From the sequence record PZ583738.1: 64,000 bases of DNA. One strand, given 5' to 3'. Below the pieces are notes generated by a model, which was not told where the DNA came from, made no database searches, and worked only from the letters and a program-made list of their open reading frames with translations. Positions 2,764 through 61,841 of the stretch are shown in pieces (the first letter of the stretch is position 1; each line of letters opens with the position of its first letter). The position numbers were made by a program, and so were the translations under genes. The DNA comes from a phage.

Positions 2764-3771
2764 ATGTTTAAGAAATACAACAGCCTTGAAAATCACTATA
2801 ACAACAAGTTCATTGAAAAGATTCGCCTGCAAGGCTTCACCAGCGGTGAATGGGTAGCTCGCGAGAAGATTCATGGTACCAACTTTTCATTAATCATTGA
2901 ACAAGACAATGTGACATGTGCGAAACGCACTGGACCTATCCTGCCTGCAGAAGATTTCTATGGTTATGAAATTGTATTAAAGAATTATGCTGATTCTATT
3001 AAATCTGTGCAGAAACTTTTGCAGGATATTAATTACCAGGCATACCAGATTTATGGTGAGTTTGCCGGGGCAGGTATCCAGAAGAATGTGGATTACGGTG
3101 ATAAAGATTTTTATGTATTTGATATCCGCGTTACTAAAGAAGATGGTTTTGAATCCGTCCTGACTGACACCTTGATGGAAGCATTCTGTATTATCCATAA
3201 GTTTAAGGTTGCACCGCGCCTGGCTACAGGTAGTTTTGAAGAATTAATTAAGCTCCCTAATGACCTGGATTCTGTTGTCCCTGATTACAATTTTACAGTG
3301 GATAACGCAGGTTTGACTACAGCAAATACCACTGATTTTGATGCAAAGGCGGAAGGTAAAGTATTCACTGCTGAAGGATTTGTATTAAAACCTGATGTTC
3401 CTGCATGGTTACCTAACGGCGAGCGTGTAGCGATTAAATGTAAGAACTCTAAATTCAGTGAAAAGAAAAAGTCTGATAAGCCTATTAAGGCTGCAGTGGT
3501 TCTGAGCCAAAATGATATGGATTTACTGTGGAATTTCACTGATTATGTGACTGTTAACCGTATCAACAATGTTATCAGTAAAATTGGGGAAGTAACACCG
3601 AAGGATTTTGGAAAGGTAATGGGGTTAACAGTCCAAGATATTCTGGAAGAAGCGGGGCGCGAAGGTCTTGAATTATCCCTGACGGAAAATCCTGTTGAAG
3701 TTAAAAAGCAACTCATCACAAATGTAAGAGAAACATTAAGACATGTTTGGATTGCATTAGTTAGTGAATAA
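2764..3771 (+). CDS. rnlB: RNA ligase 2 (Rnl2 family)
   Basis: 335 aa; N-terminus [13 protein letters not shown]...[15 protein letters not shown] with nucleotidyltransferase motif I lysine (KIHG); matches recalled T4 Rnl2 along its length. Confidence 0.9.
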
Positions 3772-7101: not shown

Positions 7102-7920
7102 TTAAGAAATTCGTGATGCTGCGAGAGCAGACAAGTCCGCGAAGGACAGGGTAGGCTTGGCGCCTTTTTCTTCAACTGCTTCTGAAATGTAATTCAGTGC
7201 CGCAGCATCGTCTACATTTTTATTTATAGCGGCTTCGGTGATTGGTTTGTCGGTGGGTTCTACCTGACCTTTAACCATTTCAACGATAGCGCCAATTTTG
7301 GTACCGAATGCATCAGAGTATTCCATGCCTTCTACCAGAGAACCAACTTTTTCTTTCTGAGATTCAGTCAGGTCTTTAGTTGCTTCAGTCAACGCAACTT
7401 CACGTTGGACATAATTGATATAAGCATCACGCTTAGAAACTTCTTCGAACAGGTTAGCGGTTTCTTCTTTCTGTTCAGCCAGTTCTTCCTGCATTTCTGC
7501 AACAACATCAACAGATTCTTCCGGAACAACAACGTTGTGCTCAACGAACAGTTCTTTCATGCTGGTGAACATGGATTCGAACAGGTCAGCTTTAATGCCA
7601 CGGTCGACAGCCAGTTTATTTTCAGCAAGCCATTCTTTAGCAACGTGGTCCAGGAATTTAGCTGCAGATTCTTTCAGTTTTTTCTCTGCTTTTTCGTCGG
7701 ATTCTTCTTTATTCTTTTCGACTTCTTCTTCAGCTTTTTCAGCGATGGCGTGAATGTGAGATTCTGCCAGTTTGATGGCGTGTTGCTTGACGGTAGCTTC
7801 GAATACAGTGCCGAAGGTAGCTTTCGCTTCCGGGGACAAATTAACTGATTCGAAAATACTATCGAGAGCAACGGAAGCATCGATATTCTGAGCTTCGGCA
7901 ATGAGTTGTTCTTTAAGCAT
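7102..7920 (-). CDS. 22: prohead core scaffold protein gp22
   Basis: 272 aa acidic coiled-coil-rich protein in T4 gene 22 position. Confidence 0.85.
   Translation of the reverse strand: MLKEQLIAEAQNIDASVALDSIFESVNLSPEAKATFGTVFEATVKQHAIKLAESHIHAIAEKAEEEVEKNKEESDEKAEKKLKESAAKFLDHVAKEWLAENKLAVDRGIKADLFESMFTSMKELFVEHNVVVPEESVDVVAEMQEELAEQKEETANLFEEVSKRDAYINYVQREVALTEATKDLTESQKEKVGSLVEGMEYSDAFGTKIGAIVEMVKGQVEPTDKPITEAAINKNVDDAAALNYISEAVEEKGAKPTLSFADLSALAASRIS
7221..7228 (-). promoter_or_regulatory. late promoter TATAAATA upstream of gene 23 (within 3-prime end of gene 22)
   Basis: Exact motif about 140 nt upstream of gene 23 start. Confidence 0.4.
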
Positions 7921-7949: not shown

Positions 7950-7957
7950 TATTTATA
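7950..7957 (-). promoter_or_regulatory. late promoter TATAAATA upstream of gene 22
   Basis: Exact motif about 30 nt upstream of gene 22 start. Confidence 0.5.
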
Positions 7958-8591
7958 ACGTCTTTAAAGCCTCTGCGAGAGCCATAAAGGCGTCATCGGC
8001 ACTGGTATCGGCAACAGCCGTTTGTGATTCTGTAATCTGCTTTGGTTTGACCCAAGCGTCCGGAGCACTTGGCCCCCATACTGCGTCTACTCCAACCGTC
8101 AATTTAAAACCTTCATTAACGATGCTATAACCTTTTGCTGATTTAGTCAGGGAACCAAGTCCACGACTAGATACACCAGGAATCCAACCTGCTCTTATAT
8201 TTGCAGCAAGTTTATCACCTGGACCATGGTCGCCTTCGATAATACGCGCGCGGCCATATACATCATTCCCTTTCCACCACATTTCCTCGATAATAATTGC
8301 CGCCTGCATAGGGTCAACGTTTGCACGAGGTGGATGGTTTAATTCTCCAAGAGACTGCTTGGTTTCAACCTGTTCGGCGATATAGTCCGCAACGGCTTTT
8401 TCCAAAATATGTTTAGGATAAAGTCGTTTATTACGGTTAACAACTTCAGCTTGTAGGAAAATACCTTCAATATAAAGTCCTGGCTTTAAACCGCTGCTGG
8501 AACCATCATGAGATTCCAACATCGGTACACCATCTTTAATTTCGCCCGGTTGACCCCAGTGTTCGATTAGTAACTCTGGTTTCTGTTCCAT
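7953..8591 (-). CDS. 21: prohead protease gp21
   Basis: 212 aa; GVPMLESHDG, LGELNHPPRANVDP, GWIPGVSSRGLGSL match recalled T4 gp21. Confidence 0.9.
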   Translation of the reverse strand: MEQKPELLIEHWGQPGEIKDGVPMLESHDGSSSGLKPGLYIEGIFLQAEVVNRNKRLYPKHILEKAVADYIAEQVETKQSLGELNHPPRANVDPMQAAIIIEEMWWKGNDVYGRARIIEGDHGPGDKLAANIRAGWIPGVSSRGLGSLTKSAKGYSIVNEGFKLTVGVDAVWGPSAPDAWVKPKQITESQTAVADTSADDAFMALAEALKTL

Positions 8592-41262: not shown

Positions 41263-41595
41263 ATGAACATCAAAACTTACAACGAGTTTTTAGCCGAATC
41301 CGCCATCAATGAGACCAAATCAATTGATGATAGTGAAGGCTCTCTGAAATTTGGTTTAACCAAAAACGCAGATGGTGTTTTCTTTCAGATTGGTAATGAA
41401 CGTTTTCAAACGTCCAAATATTCCAAAGCTGCAGTTGAAGCTGTCCTGAAATCTGGTGGCAAGTGGAAAGGCAAAGAAGGTACTAAAGAAATTGGTATCG
41501 CTGTTGACGGTGGTATGGCTTATTTTAAAATTGGCGATGAACAATTTATTATGTCTGCTCGCGGACGTAAAGAACTGGCAAAACTTTATAAATAA
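41263..41595 (+). CDS. internal protein with capsid-targeting leader (variant MNIKTYNEFLAES)
   Basis: 110 aa; N-terminus matches T4 internal-protein capsid targeting sequence with L-x-E protease site. Confidence 0.6.
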   Translation: MNIKTYNEFLAESAINETKSIDDSEGSLKFGLTKNADGVFFQIGNERFQTSKYSKAAVEAVLKSGGKWKGKEGTKEIGIAVDGGMAYFKIGDEQFIMSARGRKELAKLYK

Positions 41596-41603
41596 GGTTT
41601 CTT

Positions 41604-41876
41604 ATGAAAACTTTCAATGAATTTTTCAACGAGTCACAATTGAATGAAGAAGTAAAAATTAGTAAAGCAGTCAAATCTATGATTGACAATATCAATCACC
41701 TGTATAGCATTGACTTGACTGACCATATAACAATTGGTAACAAACGCAACTTTTTCGCGTTTGACATTTCAGAACTTGACCAGAACCAAATTAATAACAT
41801 TGAGCGTTTTGCCAATGACAAGGGTCTCCGCCATGAGACAGCTGGTTATAAAAAATATGCAATTTATCTTAAATAA
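41604..41876 (+). CDS. internal protein with capsid-targeting leader (MKTFNEFFNES)
   Basis: 90 aa; CTS-like N-terminus. Confidence 0.6.
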   Translation: MKTFNEFFNESQLNEEVKISKAVKSMIDNINHLYSIDLTDHITIGNKRNFFAFDISELDQNQINNIERFANDKGLRHETAGYKKYAIYLK

Positions 41877-41884
41877 GGCTTCAA

Positions 41885-42127
41885 ATGAAAACTTATCAAA
41901 CATTTATAACAGAATCTTCCCATAGTATGGAAGTTAAACTTGGTCAAGCCCTTGCTGAAGCAGAGCGCCTGTTTGCACGTATCAAAGAACTTGCCGATTC
42001 TGTAGATGCATCATCTTTTAAAGGCGACCAGGGTAAAGTTAAAGCTCTCCTTGCTCTTTGTTCAGACGCGGGTGAAATTGCTAAGAACGGCACCAAGATG
42101 AAAAAACGCCTAGAAGATTTAAAATAA
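41885..42127 (+). CDS. internal protein with capsid-targeting leader (MKTYQTFITES)
   Basis: 80 aa; CTS-like N-terminus. Confidence 0.65.
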   Translation: MKTYQTFITESSHSMEVKLGQALAEAERLFARIKELADSVDASSFKGDQGKVKALLALCSDAGEIAKNGTKMKKRLEDLK

Positions 42128-42175
42128 GTGTACATGATGGGATAACTGTAGTATGATTATCCCATCAACTACTGG
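42128..42175 (+). promoter_or_regulatory. early promoter / stem-loop cassette (PeSL-like): GTGTAC, GGGATAA...TTATCCC inverted repeat over the -10, leader catcaactactggag
   Basis: Repeated cassette, compare 42438, 46472, 57667, 61570. Confidence 0.5.
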
Positions 42176-42182
42176 AGACCAC

Positions 42183-42437
42183 ATGAAAACTTATCAAGAA
42201 TTTATTACTGAATCTGCAAATGCAAAAGTTGAGTTTGCTTATGTTGGTTCGCCGCGTGGCAGTTTTTCCAATGAGGAATTCCGTCGTTCACTGGACAACT
42301 TTATGCAGTTAAGTGCTGAAGTATCGCATGATGGTCGTTATGACATCGTTACTATTAGCGGTTCTGAAGACCTTATCAAAAAGTGGTACAAGCAGAAAGA
42401 TGTTGAGATGCGTTACTATCGTATCCCTAAAAAATAA
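42183..42437 (+). CDS. internal protein with capsid-targeting leader (MKTYQEFITES)
   Basis: Start moved to ATG at 42183 (RBS GGAG upstream, early promoter/stem-loop cassette upstream); N-terminus equals T4 CTS consensus. Confidence 0.7.
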   Translation: MKTYQEFITESANAKVEFAYVGSPRGSFSNEEFRRSLDNFMQLSAEVSHDGRYDIVTISGSEDLIKKWYKQKDVEMRYYRIPKK

Positions 42438-42482
42438 GTGTACTTTTAAATGGGATAGTGTATAATTATCCCATCAACTACT
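42438..42482 (+). promoter_or_regulatory. early promoter / stem-loop cassette (PeSL-like)
   Basis: GTGTAC, 17 bp spacer, TATAAT inside gggatag...ttatccc inverted repeat, leader catcaactactgagg. Confidence 0.5.
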
Positions 42483-42494
42483 GAGGGCCAAAAA

Positions 42495-42716
42495 ATGAAA
42501 ACTTATCAAGAATTTATTAACGAAGCTAAAATGCATGACGAATTGCCGATTCAATCTAAAACTTTTGATGGTACACTGAAGGATTTTAAAAAGTTACCAA
42601 ATGATAAATTGGCAAAACTTACAGGTTCTGTATCTGAAACAGGTGGTAAGGTTACTTTCTCTGCCCGTGGTATTGTCAACCTTAAAAAACTTTTGAAAGC
42701 CGTTGGTGCTGAATAA
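42495..42716 (+). CDS. internal protein with capsid-targeting leader (MKTYQEFINEA)
   Basis: 73 aa; CTS N-terminus; preceded by early promoter/stem-loop cassette. Confidence 0.7.
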   Translation: MKTYQEFINEAKMHDELPIQSKTFDGTLKDFKKLPNDKLAKLTGSVSETGGKVTFSARGIVNLKKLLKAVGAE

Positions 42717-44219: not shown

Positions 44220-44293
44220 GGCCCTGTAGCTCAATTGGTTAGAGCATCCGGCTCATAACTGGCAGGTTTCCGGTTCAAGTCCGGATGGGGCCA
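44220..44293 (+). tRNA. tRNA with CAU anticodon (Met, or Ile if lysidine-modified)
   Basis: Hand-folded cloverleaf: acceptor ggccctg/tggggcc, D-arm gctc-aattggtta-gagc, anticodon loop cTCATAa, T-arm tccgg-TTCAAGT-ccgga, discriminator A. Confidence 0.8.
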
Positions 44294-44295
44294 CC

Positions 44296-44372
44296 CGGGG
44301 TGTAGCTCAATTGTATAGAGCAACGGTCTTCTAAACCGTAGGTTGTGGGTTAGAATCCCACCACCCCGACCA
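44296..44372 (+). tRNA. tRNA-Arg (anticodon UCU), CCA encoded
   Basis: Hand-folded cloverleaf: acceptor cggggtg/caccccg, D-arm gctc/gagc, anticodon stem acggt/accgt with loop cTTCTaa, T-arm gtggg-TTAGAAT-cccac, then ACCA. Confidence 0.85.
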
Positions 44373-52989: not shown

Positions 52990-53573
52990 TGCTGTATGAA
53001 CCCGGTTGTATGGGTGTTGATGTAAACTTCATCCGCCGGGCAGAAAATGCAGGTATAATTGTATCAAGAGACGAATTTATGATTACCAAAAAATATTGGG
53101 CGAACCTTGATGATGGTGATGAAGGAATCAAGGTGGAAAATGTTGATTGGTCGCGATGCAATCGTCATGTGAAAGAGCTTTTAATTAAGGAATATAAAAT
53201 GGGATACATCATTAATGGGCATCAACCAGAACCACTCAAAGAACAGACACCCGACCCATTAATTTCTTATAGCAAGAAATATGGATTTCGTACCTGGAGT
53301 GATGAATTTGATAAATTAATTTGTTCCAGGTTTTATGCCTGGGCTGGAATCTTATTTTTACCATTCCTGTGGTTTTTCCTGACAGGTAAAAATGAAGCAC
53401 CTGTAGCTGTAATGGGCGCGTGCTTTTCTACTGCTCTTGCTGGACTTATTGCATCATTTTTATGGACTATGGTTATTGAAGTACCTTTTCGTATTTCTAA
53501 AGTTAAAAAGGTGTACGACGATATCACTAAGAAAAATACATTGAACTCTTTTATTGAGGAATGCCGTAAATGA
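52983..53573 (+). CDS. hypothetical membrane protein
   Basis: 196 aa; C-terminal TM helices; ends ...NSFIEECRK (junction cassette). Confidence 0.5.
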   Translation: MVMLYEPGCMGVDVNFIRRAENAGIIVSRDEFMITKKYWANLDDGDEGIKVENVDWSRCNRHVKELLIKEYKMGYIINGHQPEPLKEQTPDPLISYSKKYGFRTWSDEFDKLICSRFYAWAGILFLPFLWFFLTGKNEAPVAVMGACFSTALAGLIASFLWTMVIEVPFRISKVKKVYDDITKKNTLNSFIEECRK

Positions 53574-53806
53574 GTATTGCGATTTATATTAAATCTGAGT
53601 CATGTGATTCTTATCTGTATTCCTATGATACAGGCACATCAGAAGAGAAAATCAAAGAAGATTTAGAAAGTGATTTGGATATGTTCCGACCGATTTCTGA
53701 ATACAGAATTCAAACTTCTGATAGTGAAAGCCCTTCATTGGAAAATAGACTTGAATTTTTAATGAGTGATATTTTTAACCAATCATGGAAACGTGACGAT
53801 GAGTAA
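53570..53806 (+). CDS. hypothetical small acidic protein
   Basis: 78 aa; ATGA-coupled start. Confidence 0.45.
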   Translation: MSIAIYIKSESCDSYLYSYDTGTSEEKIKEDLESDLDMFRPISEYRIQTSDSESPSLENRLEFLMSDIFNQSWKRDDE

Positions 53807-54257
53807 GAAAAACAAGGTGAAAGAATTATCGGCTGGCATTATTTTCATGACTGAAGATAAAGAGTTATTCATGGGTCGTGTGACCGGTTCTCGTAAACCA
53901 GGTATGCCAGCACACAAATGGGACATCCCTAAGGGTCATGTGGAAGCTGGTGAATCCCCAATTGAAGCGGCTATTCGTGAAACCGAAGAAGAAACTGGGT
54001 TTACCCAATACGACCCGGCATTCTTAAAAGACCTCGGTGAGTTCCGTTATTCAGATAACAAAAACCTTCACCTGTTTTTGTATACGGTTCCTGTCGAGCA
54101 TGAGCAATTCAGACACAGTAAATGCTCTGCCTATCATACCTTCCCGGATGGCAGTTCGGTCCCAGAGTTTGATGCATTTGCTCTGATTAAACCGAGCCAA
54201 TGGCAGTACGTGATGGGCAAATCGATGTACAAGGTAATGACTCAAATTTTCGGATAA
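53799..54257 (+). CDS. nudE: Nudix hydrolase
   Basis: Start at ATG MSKKNK; Nudix box GHVEAGESPIEAAIRETEEETG; position next to lysozyme e as in T4. Confidence 0.85.
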   Translation: MSKKNKVKELSAGIIFMTEDKELFMGRVTGSRKPGMPAHKWDIPKGHVEAGESPIEAAIRETEEETGFTQYDPAFLKDLGEFRYSDNKNLHLFLYTVPVEHEQFRHSKCSAYHTFPDGSSVPEFDAFALIKPSQWQYVMGKSMYKVMTQIFG

Positions 54258-54283
54258 TAAATACTCCTATATAAGGGGGTATT

Positions 54284-54778
54284 ATGAATATATTCGAAAT
54301 GTTACGCATAGATGAAGGTTGTAAGTTGGATTTGTATAAAGATACTGAAGGCTATTGGACCATTGGTATCGGGCAACTGATAACTAAGAACCCATCAAAA
54401 GATGTTGCTCGTGCTGAGCTCGACAAGCTCATGGGTCGCGTCTGCAATGGTCGCATAACCCAACACGAAGCTGAAACATTGTTTAATCGTTCGGTCGAAA
54501 AAGCTAAAGCTGGAATCTTGAGACATCCTGTCTTAAAACCTGTTTATGATGTACTGGATGAAGTTCGTCGCTGTGCACTCATTAATATGGTATTCCAGAT
54601 GGGTGTTGCTGGGGTAGCTGGTTTTCCTAAGGGTATGCGACTTCTGAAGGCTAAATCATGGGAAGCTGCTGCTAAGGAACTAGCTGACTCAAGATGGTAT
54701 AAAGTCCAGACTCCGAATAGGGCAAAACGAGTTATCGAAACTTTCCGTACTGGAACTTTTGACGCATACAAAAGGTAA
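54284..54778 (+). CDS. e: endolysin (T4 lysozyme family)
   Basis: 164 aa; [12 protein letters not shown]...[13 protein letters not shown]...[12 protein letters not shown]...TPNRAKRVI matches recalled T4 lysozyme including catalytic E11/D20 context. Confidence 0.95.
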
Positions 54779-54781
54779 AAT

Positions 54782-55051
54782 ATGAAAACGTATCAAGAAT
54801 TTTTGGCTGAATCTGTATTAAATGAATCAGATGAAAGCCGCATGGCATTTTTAGCTAAGAAAGAAGGCTTTGAGTTTACTTCTATTAAAAAAGTTAATGG
54901 AACTTCATTTAAAGTTGGTGATTGGACCTTTGGTAACAAAGGAAGTGGCCAGTGGCAAATTGTAGATAAATCTGGTAAAGAAGTGGATTATTTGTTTAAT
55001 CAGAAATTGGGTGATATCGCTAAACTTATGGGTCAATACTCTAAGAAATGA
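54782..55051 (+). CDS. internal protein with capsid-targeting leader (MKTYQEFLAES)
   Basis: 89 aa; CTS N-terminus; position between e and denV like T4 ipIII/ipII. Confidence 0.7.
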   Translation: MKTYQEFLAESVLNESDESRMAFLAKKEGFEFTSIKKVNGTSFKVGDWTFGNKGSGQWQIVDKSGKEVDYLFNQKLGDIAKLMGQYSKK

Positions 55052-55100
55052 TGTACATCTCCAAATGATAGGGTTATAATGACCCTATCAACTACGGAGA
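55051..55100 (+). promoter_or_regulatory. early promoter / stem-loop cassette upstream of denV (variant inverted repeat tagggt...accctat)
   Basis: ATGTAC, 18 bp spacer, TATAAT, leader atcaactacggag. Confidence 0.45.
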
Positions 55101-55106
55101 ACAAAC

Positions 55107-55523
55107 ATGACACGTATTAACTTAACCCTGGTATCTGAACTTGCTGACCAACACCTTATGGCTGAATATCGTGAGCTTCCTCGCGTGTTTGGTGCGGTTC
55201 GCAAACATGTACAAAATGGTAAAAAGGTTTCTGACTTTAAAATCCCATCATCTTTTCTTTTAGGGACTGGTCATGTCACCTTCTTTTATGATAAACTTTT
55301 GTTCCTTAAAAACCGCCATCAAGAACTTATTGCGGAATGTTTAAAGCGAGGGTTTAACATAAAAGATATTTCTACCCAAGATTTAAATGATATTCCTGAT
55401 GAATGGAAGAATGATTATCAACCATCAATCTGGTCAATTGAAATCAGTCAAGCCAGACTGAATGAGAAAATTTCTCAAAAGCCTACCTGGTACAAATACT
55501 ATGGGAAAGCAGTGTACGCTTAA
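55107..55523 (+). CDS. denV: endonuclease V (pyrimidine dimer DNA glycosylase)
   Basis: 138 aa; [34 protein letters not shown]... near-identical to recalled T4 EndoV. Confidence 0.95.
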
Positions 55524-55571
55524 CTAAAAAGGTTGTATACTGATTTTATCAACCAAACAATAGAATATAAA

Positions 55572-55871
55572 ATGTTAACTTATAAAGAATTTATCACAGA
55601 AGCTAAAGCTCCTAAAGCATTTCAAATCGGAGTCCAAGGTAATTTAGACCAACAATATGTTGATGCTATTGTAGCAAGCCTCGGTAAACAGGGCGTGCAA
55701 GTGGATTCGGTTGATTTTACTAAAGGCAATACTTTTAATATTGTTACATCTAAAGGTTCTTTAGCTAAAGTTAAAAAGGCCTTTGGCGTAGCACAAGCAT
55801 ATGAAATTGACCATTCTGAATTAGAAAATAAAGGTCGCCAGAACACAATTAAAGGTTCTGGTTCTTTCTAA
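55572..55871 (+). CDS. internal-protein-like protein with CTS-like leader (MLTYKEFITEA)
   Basis: Start at internal ATG of track ORF; CTS-like N-terminus. Confidence 0.6.
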   Translation: MLTYKEFITEAKAPKAFQIGVQGNLDQQYVDAIVASLGKQGVQVDSVDFTKGNTFNIVTSKGSLAKVKKAFGVAQAYEIDHSELENKGRQNTIKGSGSF

Positions 55872-56034
55872 TAAAGGCAAGCCGACCCTCTCCTCATGAA
55901 CGTCGCGTCCTCTGAGTGATGGACCTTTCCCTACCTGTAATAAGGTCGAGCCCAAGTGCGGTAAAGGGTTTACATACGGATACATGGGCGAATTATGTGC
56001 CAAGGAATGGCCCCACCACTTAAAAGAGACAATT

Positions 56035-56580
56035 ATGAAAACGTTTTTAACCGGTAGTTATCTATCCCTGATGAATGCTTTTGCAAACCATTCTGATGCT
56101 AGAGTAGAACACATTTGTAATAGTGGGTTTTATGTACCCGATTCACAAACCTTGTTTAAAGAATGCTGCACCTTAAAACTTGATGGTGGGCGCCAATCTG
56201 GTAAAACTAAAGCAGTATCCATTTTTGCTACGGAATGGTTAGCTGATGGCGGCTCTATTGTTATTTTGTCTAATAACACGGCATATGCTAATGTTTCGGC
56301 TACTGCAATCCGAAAGGAATATTTTAATAACCATACAGAAAGTATTAAGCACCGTTTGTACACTGATTCTGTTCGTAGTTTTATTGGTAACACTGCATGC
56401 AAATTCCGTGGATTATCACTTTCACGGGTTCTGTATATAATTGATGAGCCTGTTAAAACACCTGATATGGATAAGATTTATGATGCCCACATAAAGGTTG
56501 TGCATTATTGCTGTCGTGCATCATGTGAAGAAACCAATCAAACCACACGTCCTCTGTTCTTTGTGATAGGAATGCAATGA
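56035..56580 (+). CDS. P-loop NTPase (Walker A GGRQSGKT, Walker B LYIIDE)
   Basis: Start at ATG MKTFLTGS; Walker motifs visible; Cys-rich C-terminus (HYCCRASCEE). Confidence 0.55.
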   Translation: MKTFLTGSYLSLMNAFANHSDARVEHICNSGFYVPDSQTLFKECCTLKLDGGRQSGKTKAVSIFATEWLADGGSIVILSNNTAYANVSATAIRKEYFNNHTESIKHRLYTDSVRSFIGNTACKFRGLSLSRVLYIIDEPVKTPDMDKIYDAHIKVVHYCCRASCEETNQTTRPLFFVIGMQ

Positions 56581-56876
56581 TGACCCATGAAGAGCTTTTT
56601 GACCAAATCTATTTTATTCCAAAGGTTAGGTCAGAAGATTTCGTAAAGAATTTTGAAATCTTTAATAAAGCAAATTTCTTTGAGTATGTGTTTTTGTCTG
56701 GGCCTTTTATTGGGTCCAGATTTCGTTGCACTGCTCCGAGTATTCGCTTGATGAAGTTGGTTCCTTACTTTACTCTGGAATTTATTTCTGGACCGTGTAA
56801 GGGTATTATCACTCGTAGCCTCCTGACCTATGACCAGGATGTGCGATTAATTAGTGACTGGAAAAAATATGTCTAA
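56577..56876 (+). CDS. hypothetical protein
   Basis: 99 aa, ATGA-coupled. Confidence 0.45.
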   Translation: MMTHEELFDQIYFIPKVRSEDFVKNFEIFNKANFFEYVFLSGPFIGSRFRCTAPSIRLMKLVPYFTLEFISGPCKGIITRSLLTYDQDVRLISDWKKYV

Positions 56877-57083
56877 ATTGACAATTGAAGGCTCTGATGA
56901 AGCTCTGAAAAGATTTGTTGAATGGTTTAATGGGCCAGGTGAACAAGACTTTCTGGAAGTTTGGGATGGTGGGCAATGGAACGGTAAAGAAATTGTTTAT
57001 CCGACTACCTATATCTCCGTACAAGGTTGTCCTGATGGCCTTCGTTTGGTAGAATATGATATCGCAACTGGCGAGGAAGTGAA

Positions 57084-61570: not shown

Positions 61571-61625
61571 CATTTAGAGGTTTACAACACCATAAAAAGG
61601 GTGTACTATTATCCCATCAACTACT
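61570..61625 (+). promoter_or_regulatory. early promoter / stem-loop cassette
   Basis: GTTTAC ... gtgtactattatcccatcaactactgagg. Confidence 0.4.
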
Positions 61626-61637
61626 GAGGAGAACACA

Positions 61638-61841
61638 ATGAGAATTAAAAATATCAAGATTGATGCAGTTAATACTGGTGATGAGGTTGTTATCTATCTT
61701 AATGATTATGCAATCTTTATGGACAGTGCCACTGATGAAGAAGTGGTTGAACTCTTACAGAAAGCTCCATTTGAACTGTGTGAAGAAGATGCTACCCATC
61801 TTTCATCAGCAATTTTCTCATTATCATATGTGGTGGAATAA
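61638..61841 (+). CDS. hypothetical small acidic protein
   Basis: 67 aa after early promoter/stem-loop cassette. Confidence 0.5.
   Translation: MRIKNIKIDAVNTGDEVVIYLNDYAIFMDSATDEEVVELLQKAPFELCEEDATHLSSAIFSLSYVVE

Follow-up and report, generated by a model that had tools for sequence, protein, structure and literature searches.

The UV-repair gene denV of a T4-like phage lies between two small genes, ORF1 and ORF2, that begin with a capsid targeting sequence (CTS) of the type found in T4 internal proteins (IPs). The DNA analyzed is a 64,000-nucleotide stretch of sequence record PZ583738.1, referred to below as the window. In the explanation that we propose for the locus as a whole, and that we consider very probable, unrelated IP cassettes occupy independently filled slots between e and vs.8, and their products would be packaged and injected as in T4, likely to act against host defenses.

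Layout of the e-vs.8 Locus

The phage of the window is Gaprivervirus-like and of T4 type. A 1.9-kb region shares 95.0-95.7% identity with Escherichia phages pEC-M719-6WT.2, TH55, UPEC07, and DK-13, all of which have the gene order of the window, and aligns in pieces, at 94-95% identity, with SP18 and VR7. The layout is already deposited and annotated in UPEC07, pEC-M719-6WT.2, and phage 212. The three ORFs named in an earlier note on this DNA were confirmed at the coordinates given there, on the plus strand and with ORF1 and ORF2 flanking denV. The locus comprises the following features.

53799-54257: nudE, upstream of e
54284-54778, plus strand: e (endolysin; Pfam Phage_lysozyme, 6.7e-13; phrog_7), left border of the variable IP/denV locus
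54782-55051, plus strand: ORF1, in slot A (the e/denV interval); 89 aa, MKTYQEFLAES...; phrog_8765
55052-55106, plus strand: promoter and stem-loop leader of denV, T4-early type
55107-55523, plus strand: denV, pyrimidine-dimer DNA glycosylase, 138 aa (Pfam Pyr_excise PF03013, 9.7e-16; phrog_1183, 5.3e-62)
55512-55571, plus strand: denV-proximal leader of slot B, with promoter-like GTGTAC-N18-TATACT and a weak hairpin
55572-55871, plus strand: ORF2, in slot B (the denV/vs.8 interval); 99 aa from ATG, MLTYKEFITEA...; phrog_2667
55872-56034, plus strand: GC-rich conserved spacer, right border of the locus
56035-56580, plus strand: vs.8 homologue, right border gene (phrog_1488, 1.7e-70), with vs.7 downstream

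The e protein is 99-100% identical to those of UPEC07, VR7, and SP18. At the other border, vs.8-vs.7 is 99% identical to TH44 and ∼86% identical to JS98 at the nucleotide level, and the vs.8 allele is not that of UPEC07 or VR7. Megablast homology between the window and these two phages stops at ∼56051, and the UPEC07 vs.8 homologue finds its best reference match in T4 Vs.8 (39% amino acid identity), not in the allele of the window. A literature search on vs.8 found nothing useful.

Between ORF2 and vs.8 lies a GC-rich spacer of 164 nt (55872-56034), and its conservation is striking. The spacer contains conserved nucleotide blocks at 55933-55968 and 55999-56013 and a small ORF of 34 aa (55919-56023; MDLSLPVIRSSPSAVKG...). 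PVIRSSPSAV is part of this small ORF, and GCCAnGGAAyGGCCC is a block of the spacer. On the T4 map, rI.-1 and oriC presumably lie several kilobases from the spacer that precedes vs.8. Equating the spacer with T4 oriC was rejected, oriC having been placed near rI.-1 (PMC3016281). A tRNA-like origin was also rejected, the only tRNA genes found by ARAGORN being tRNA-Met and tRNA-Arg at 44220-44372. RNAalifold found 2 of 24 pairs in the spacer to be compensatory, which is weak support, and a search of Rfam over 53500-57000 (E ≤ 1) returned no RNA family.

CTS and Cognate Machinery

The internal proteins of T4 begin with a 10-residue CTS (MKTYQEFIAE) that ends in an L/I-x-E motif, after which gp21 cleaves (PMC9026906). 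Within the T4 CTS, positions 4 and 7 are important in targeting and positions 8 and 10 in processing, and the first 10 residues of IPIII are enough for incorporation into the prohead core (PMC9026906). ORF1 and ORF2 have the same N-terminal arrangement. Tyr-4 and Phe-7, the targeting positions, are present in both, and the gp21 motif at residues 8-10 reads L-A-E in ORF1 and I-T-E in ORF2. Cleavage after Glu-10 is predicted to remove MKTYQEFLAE (residues 1-10) from ORF1 and MLTYKEFITE from ORF2, leaving mature proteins of 79 aa (pI 9.2) and 89 aa (pI 9.3), respectively. Across 88 cassettes, the CTS consensus was M-K-T-Y-x-E-F-[IL]-x-E.

When the pattern M[KLRNSQ]T[YF][KQ][ED]F was scanned at every ATG, GTG, and TTG on both strands of the 64 kb, four matches were obtained, all at the starts of ORFs of 73-99 aa and grouped in two clusters; CTS-like starts are present beyond chance. 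The T4 internal proteins are small and basic, are encoded at two loci (e...vs.8 and 57B...tRNA), and have the gp21/gp22 machinery, and the same holds in the window. Both ORFs lie inside e...vs.8, one of the two polymorphic IP loci. The other locus and the cognate machinery are encoded as follows.

41263-42716, plus strand: other IP locus, between 57B and the tRNA genes, with five tandem CTS ORFs (41263-41595, 41604-41876, 41885-42127, 42183-42437, 42495-42716)
7102-7920, minus strand: gp22, scaffold core protein (phrog_237, 4.1e-90)
7953-8591, minus strand: gp21, prohead protease (phrog_207, 4.1e-76)

Besides gp21 and gp22, the window encodes gp20, gp23, and gp24. Cassettes of the 41263-42716 locus match phrog_3966, phrog_7673, and phrog_3499 (“internal head protein”). 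The count of five there comes from a looser look than the strict CTS pattern; with it, the two classical IP loci of the window hold seven CTS-bearing ORFs in all. Over their first 33 nt, these seven cassettes are identical at 21-30 of 33 positions, and uninterrupted matches reach 25 nt. At the level of sequence, then, CTS, cleavage motif, locus, and cognate machinery all mark both ORFs as predicted T4-type internal proteins.

Two Cassette Families

The match of ORF1 to phrog_8765, “internal virion protein,” covers the full length of the protein (2.6e-37). Homologues were found in 43 phage records, and in all cases in which the locus or the annotation around it was examined, the gene lies beside e, immediately downstream. 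The protein is 98-99% identical in about seven Gaprivervirus-like genomes (99% in at least six phage genomes other than that of the window) and 63-78% identical in T4-like phages of Klebsiella, Enterobacter, Kosakonia, Edwardsiella, Serratia, Erwinia, and Pectobacterium. Within Gaprivervirus, this handful of genomes is the whole distribution, the gene being cleanly missing from the type phages VR7 and SP18. A confident AF2 model (pLDDT 83) gave an alpha-beta5-alpha fold.

For ORF2, the full-length match is to phrog_2667, “internal head protein” (1.5e-41), and homologues were found in 284 phage records. The nearest known relatives of ORF2 are ip7 of VR7 (96% identity over 99 aa), SP18, and JS98, together with T2 Ip7 (49% over 100 aa, E = 9e-28), and sequence comparison assigns it to the Ip7 family. 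The T2 gene sits at the other IP locus (57B-ip5-ip7-trna.4), whereas that of the window is at e...vs.8. In most loci, Ip7 is the final cassette before vs.8, as is ORF2; in the VR5-like locus L018, by contrast, it lies upstream of denV. Ip7 is unusually conserved between genera, with 94% amino acid identity to a Karamvirus-like locus at a dS of 0.74. The AF2 model was of moderate confidence (pLDDT 70) and ferredoxin-like (beta-alpha-beta-beta-alpha-beta).

Taken over both ORFs without the CTS, dN/dS against homologues from other genera was 0.03-0.34; the values for the individual genes were 0.11-0.19 (ORF1) and 0.05-0.32 (ORF2). These ratios indicate that ORF1 and ORF2 are under purifying selection, and together with the AF2 models they identify both ORFs as real genes. 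In describing them as CTS-bearing and ip-like, the earlier note was correct, as judged by the CTS residues and by the full-length matches to internal virion and internal head protein PHROGs.

Other searches returned little. Pfam gave no above-threshold match for either ORF, and a PDB sequence search with both gave chance-level matches only. A flagellin-hook “IN motif” protein from the PDB (3.3e-4) was set aside, no single stretch passing the threshold alone. No likeness of ORF1 or ORF2 to IPI* was detected in sequence or fold, and a literature search for virion proteomics found none for Ip7 or phrog_8765 homologues.

Gene Order around denV

The order in T4 (NC_000866) is nudE-e-ipIII-ipII-denV-vs.8. 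The earlier note had given it as e, ipIII, ipII, denV, which was confirmed, as was the departure of the window from it. To place this difference among T4-like phages, e, denV, vs.8, and CTS ORFs were mapped in 80 denV loci from IMG/VR and in annotated GenBank regions. The counts that follow refer to 37 other T4-like loci with e, denV, and vs.8 and are rough, because some of these are near-duplicates. Their general scheme is e-[0-2 CTS ORFs]-denV-[0-3 CTS ORFs]-vs.8. CTS genes occur on both sides of denV in 24 of the 37 loci. The 1+1 layout of the window is the most frequent (10/37), whereas the 2+0 layout of T4 is found in 2/37; slot B is empty in 9/37.

The positions of individual cassettes vary as well. 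Depending on the phage, homologues of T4 ipIII either precede or follow denV, and four loci (L012 and L036-L038) combine Ip7 homologues with ipII and ipIII homologues located on either side of denV. T2 has no denV at the locus, which reads e-ip4-vs.8. Given these variable positions and the T2 arrangement, denV is embedded in an array of cassettes, and the configuration of T4 is that of a minority and does not serve as the reference. Taking the T4 order as the standard, as the earlier note did, was in this respect misleading.

That note had offered local rearrangement as one source of the difference. On such a reading, ORF1 and ORF2 would be the orthologues of ipIII and ipII, and denV or one of the ip genes would have been transposed between them. 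It has in its favor a T4-like neighborhood, the same number of ip-like genes (two), and the similar lengths of ORF2 (99 aa) and IPII (100 aa). Nevertheless, BLASTP of ORF1 and ORF2 against IPII and IPIII gave no match past residue 11-12, that is, past the CTS itself. The two ORFs belong instead to phrog_8765 and the Ip7 family, and true ipII and ipIII homologues are found elsewhere on either side of denV together with Ip7. We therefore regard transposition as scarcely credible. As judged from sequence, ORF1 and ORF2 are not ipII or ipIII orthologues and represent different cassettes in the slots beside denV. Alignment to T4 and other T4-like genomes thus bore out the difference in order but not a movement of ipII or ipIII around denV. 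The other source named in the note, independent acquisition of ip cassettes, is supported, both by the unrelatedness of the cassettes to ipII and ipIII and by the gain and loss of whole cassettes between near-identical genomes described below.

Cassette Turnover and Recombination Junctions

Since 1994, the two IP loci of T-even phages have served as textbook cases of hyperplastic regions, and analogues of shuffling elements at these loci were reportedly described by Repoila et al. in that year. The loci are highly polymorphic, with >30 IP variants and with promoter and stem-loop flanks analogous to PeSLs (PMC2839356). These promoter/stem-loop elements may drive and confine shuffling (Arbiol et al. 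2010, PMC2839356); in its remarks on the IP loci, the same paper credits their description to Repoila et al. 1994 and Comeau et al. 2007 (PMC2839356). In PeSL-type shuffling (Arbiol et al. 2010; Comeau et al. 2014), a conserved early promoter, stem-loop, and leader precede the cassettes, and near-identical genomes differ by whole ORFs that have been inserted, deleted, or replaced. Both features are also seen here.

Slot A was compared among genomes whose e and denV proteins are 99% identical and whose flanking DNA is about 94-95% identical. It is empty in VR7 and SP18, holds ORF1 in the window and in UPEC07, and holds an ip5-like gene in VR20 and VR25. The edges of the indel are clean and run from the last codons of e to exactly the promoter/stem-loop leader of denV. 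The presence or absence of ORF1 may reflect loss from VR7-like genomes or gain by the lineage of the window.

For slot B, the informative genome is TH44, the nearest to the window on the vs.8 side, in which the order is e-ORF1-denV-[87 aa]-[65 aa, MLTYKEF...]-ip7-vs.8. The window is 94.8% identical to TH44 up to position 55613 and 97.3% identical from position 55577, and is without the two middle cassettes; the junction falls within the 37-nt CTS-coding overlap. The ORF2 CTS is correspondingly a patchwork, with codons 2 and 5 (TTA and AAA) those of the 65-aa cassette of TH44 and codons 8-10 (ATC ACA GAA) those of ip7. The ip7 copy of the window thus has a chimeric MLTYKEF CTS and is joined directly to the denV-proximal leader. 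UPEC07 has a comparable fusion of the denV leader to ip7, in which the crossover took place at the 3′ end of the CTS. This difference in position points to a UPEC07 fusion independent of that in the window.

The crossovers mapped for slot B thus lie in the ∼30-37-nt CTS-coding repeat that opens each cassette, downstream of a shared denV-proximal leader. In the PeSL model, by contrast, crossovers are placed in the promoter/stem-loop. Comparison of these genomes shows, at the sequence level, that each of the two slots beside denV is filled independently of the other through gain, loss, and replacement of cassettes, and it is for this reason that the order differs from that of T4.

Promoters and Leaders

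The segment at 55052-55106 has the properties of a PeSL or IP-locus element, namely a conserved intergenic combination of early promoter, stem-loop, and SD beside variable ORFs. Its −35 element (TGTACA, 55052-55057) is followed by a −10 element (TATAAT, 55075-55080) that lies in the loop of a hairpin at 55066-55090, and the conserved leader ATCAACTACGGAG follows the −10 element and hairpin upstream of denV. A promoter scan matched the T4-early type at 10 of 12 positions, and the hairpin has a folding energy of −22.2 kcal/mol (z = −5.06). The T4 early promoter type (GTTTAC/TATAAT) and AT-rich stems of the window elements are as already stated for IP loci (PMC2839356). Four copies of the sequence TATAATnAYCCYATCAACTAC are present in the window, where 0.01 would be expected, at 42152 and 42461 (before two ip cassettes), 55075 (before denV), and 61604.

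The leader of slot B is, apart from two substitutions, the leader found between denV and the first cassette in VR7, TH44, UPEC07, and phage 212. Its hairpin is not significant (z = −0.62), and its promoter-like sequence, GTGTAC-N18-TATACT, is weaker than the denV promoter. The two ORFs differ in their start regions. ORF1 begins 3 nt after the stop codon of e, with AAGG upstream, and this interval leaves it with no promoter/stem-loop element of its own; it is therefore presumed to be co-transcribed, and is probably also translationally coupled, with e. Upstream of ORF2, a G>A change in GGA is present, GGA and an alternative ATG having become AGA and ATA, and residue 2 of ORF2 is Leu rather than Lys (K2L). 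These two changes could lower expression or targeting. The MLTY start recurs in other phage genomes, being found in VR7 ip7 and in one TH44 cassette.

The consensus late promoter TATAAATA was absent from 53500-56200, although other parts of the window are enriched in it (20 occurrences, with 5.2 expected). Late expression of the locus must therefore use read-through or a variant promoter, and the absence of a nearby consensus late promoter is a gap in the expression argument. A scan for terminators between the genes gave nothing convincing.

Proposed Function

By analogy with T4, the CTS would dock the ORF1 and ORF2 proteins onto the gp22 scaffold core of the prohead, and gp21 would then cut it off after Glu-10. 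The mature basic proteins of 79 and 89 aa would stay in the head with the DNA and be injected at the next infection, where they would most likely neutralize a host defense acting on the incoming modified DNA. The model for this last step is again T4, in which Ip1, Ip2, and Ip3 each inhibit a different GmrSD-type restriction enzyme, and other Ips have been proposed as GmrSD inhibitors too (PMC12373910). ORF1 and ORF2 are thus likely to be injected inhibitors of host defenses.

A packaged protein need not be a specific inhibitor, and the two could instead have a mainly structural or physical role, in neutralizing DNA charge or in assembling the prohead core. Such a role would suit the basic character of both predicted mature proteins (pI 9.2-9.3), as well as the behavior of the T4 IPs, which are present at ∼300 copies per head, touch DNA phosphates through their lysines, and, in the case of IPIII, slow head assembly when lost (PMC3012670, PMC9026906). 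The cross-genus conservation of Ip7 noted above (94% at a dS of 0.74) also suits housekeeping better than an arms race. On the other hand, the cassettes are evolutionarily dispensable, slot A being empty in VR7 and SP18 and slot B in 9/37 loci. All three T4 IPs proved to be specific GmrSD inhibitors (PMC12373910), and both ORFs are predicted to form folded globular domains, not disordered polycations. On balance, a mainly structural role appears rather unlikely.

Decay is a further alternative, in which one or both ORFs would be non-functional remnants and the CTS-like start a relic of recombination. The chimeric CTS of ORF2 with its K2L substitution, the mutation of GGA and the alternative ATG to AGA and ATA, and the missing TATAAATA promoter nearby are what such a relic might show. 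Against it, the ORFs are intact and full-length with dN/dS of 0.03-0.34; Tyr-4, Phe-7, Ile/Leu-8, and Glu-10 are all retained; the MLTY start is shared with VR7 ip7 and the TH44 cassette; and at least six other phage genomes carry ORF1 at 99% identity. We consider decay very improbable, and the reading of ORF1 and ORF2 as packaged, injected proteins that likely counter host defenses is preferred.

Implications

The finding is real but already known: polymorphism of the locus is established, and near-identical genes in the same order are present in GenBank, some of them already annotated as internal proteins. It adds little as genome biology. A bolder and distinctly tentative extension, to which we give less than even weight, is that e-vs.8 is an integron-like array in which the CTS repeat serves both as packaging signal and as recombination site, ORF1 and Ip7 are anti-defense genes, and denV is another cassette. 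If this were true, the CTS and leader would allow every cassette to undergo deletion, duplication, or exchange, whether from one IP locus to the other or from phage to phage, and ORF1 and Ip7 would each block a defense to which no Ip has been assigned, either another GmrSD variant or some other system that acts early.

The comparison of TH44, the window, and UPEC07 provides a clean natural case in which cassettes have been deleted and the crossovers fall inside the CTS-coding repeat. It is useful for the engineering of CTS fusions, because tandem copies of the CTS may be unstable. The practical value of the work lies in a list of candidates. Since T4 Ip1-3 block different GmrSD enzymes, each uncharacterized Ip family is a plausible anti-defense protein, and the candidates from this locus are the ORF1 family, whose members adjoin e in several genera, and Ip7, which is both widespread and strongly conserved.

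The second IP locus and the leader element

In addition to the internal protein (IP) locus between e and vs.8, which holds denV and two ip cassettes, inspection of the window revealed a second locus of this kind and a further copy of the promoter/stem-loop/leader element that precedes denV and two ip cassettes of this second locus.

41263-42716: other IP locus, five tandem ORFs bearing a capsid targeting sequence (CTS), between 57B and a tRNA-Met/tRNA-Arg pair
61604-61624: fourth IP-locus-type copy of the promoter/stem-loop/leader element (TACTATTATCCCATCAACTAC), followed by GAGG and an ATG

The five ORFs encode, in order, 110, 90, 80, 84 and 73 residues. The N-terminus of the first is extended by two residues (MNIKTYNEFLAE), and its product shares 37% identity over 51 residues with that of ORF1, the cassette between e and denV (slot A). 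The ORF downstream of the element copy (61638-61841) encodes 67 residues and lacks a CTS; the element is thus not confined to ip genes.

At 167 residues, the ORF1 homologue of a Pectobacterium phage PM2-like locus (L031) has almost double the normal length and could represent two cassettes fused together. TH44 carries a 65-residue CTS cassette (MLTYKEFMKEVKK..., positions 2931-3128 of its locus, L088) whose comparison with reference cassettes gave no match.

Possible exchange at e and slot A

The e genes of VR20 and VR25 are only 82% identical to that of the window, whereas the flanking genes are near-identical (97% for nudE and 99-100% for denV), and slot A is occupied in both phages by an ip5-like cassette. 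This pattern suggests that e and the downstream cassette were swapped as a single block.

The spacer upstream of vs.8

The intergenic region before vs.8 comprises the following feature.

55872-56034: GC-rich spacer, with a small ORF (55919-56023) and blocks at 55933-55968 and 55999-56013

At the sequence level, conservation of this spacer is extreme. Its 20-mer CCTGTAATAAGGTCGAGCCC was matched exactly in 23 of the T4-like loci compared, including T4. IMG/VR gave 21 hits, the majority of them on contigs about as long as a T4-like genome, and no match occurred across 185,579 bacterial and archaeal genomes. The small ORF varies from 20 to 47 residues across loci around an invariant core, PVIRSSPSAV, and is annotated as the N-terminus of Vs.8 in T4 and as a separate 34-residue CDS in pEC-M719-6WT.2. 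The second block, ATGyGCCAnGGAAyGGCCC, looks non-coding because it is kept regardless of frame or stop position. An Rfam search gave no match here, and covariation within the spacer was weak.

Comparison of 56035-56900 with UPEC07, TH44 and JS98 placed a mosaic boundary at the start of vs.8, and megablast homology to UPEC07, VR7 and SP18 ended at ∼56051. The vs.8-vs.7 allele of the window is 99% identical to that of TH44 and about 86% identical to that of the Dhakavirus JS98. The vs.8 homologues of UPEC07 and VR7 have their best match, at only 38-39% amino acid identity, in T4 Vs.8 and not in this allele. Deeply divergent vs.8 alleles, at least three in number, are being exchanged at the conserved spacer.
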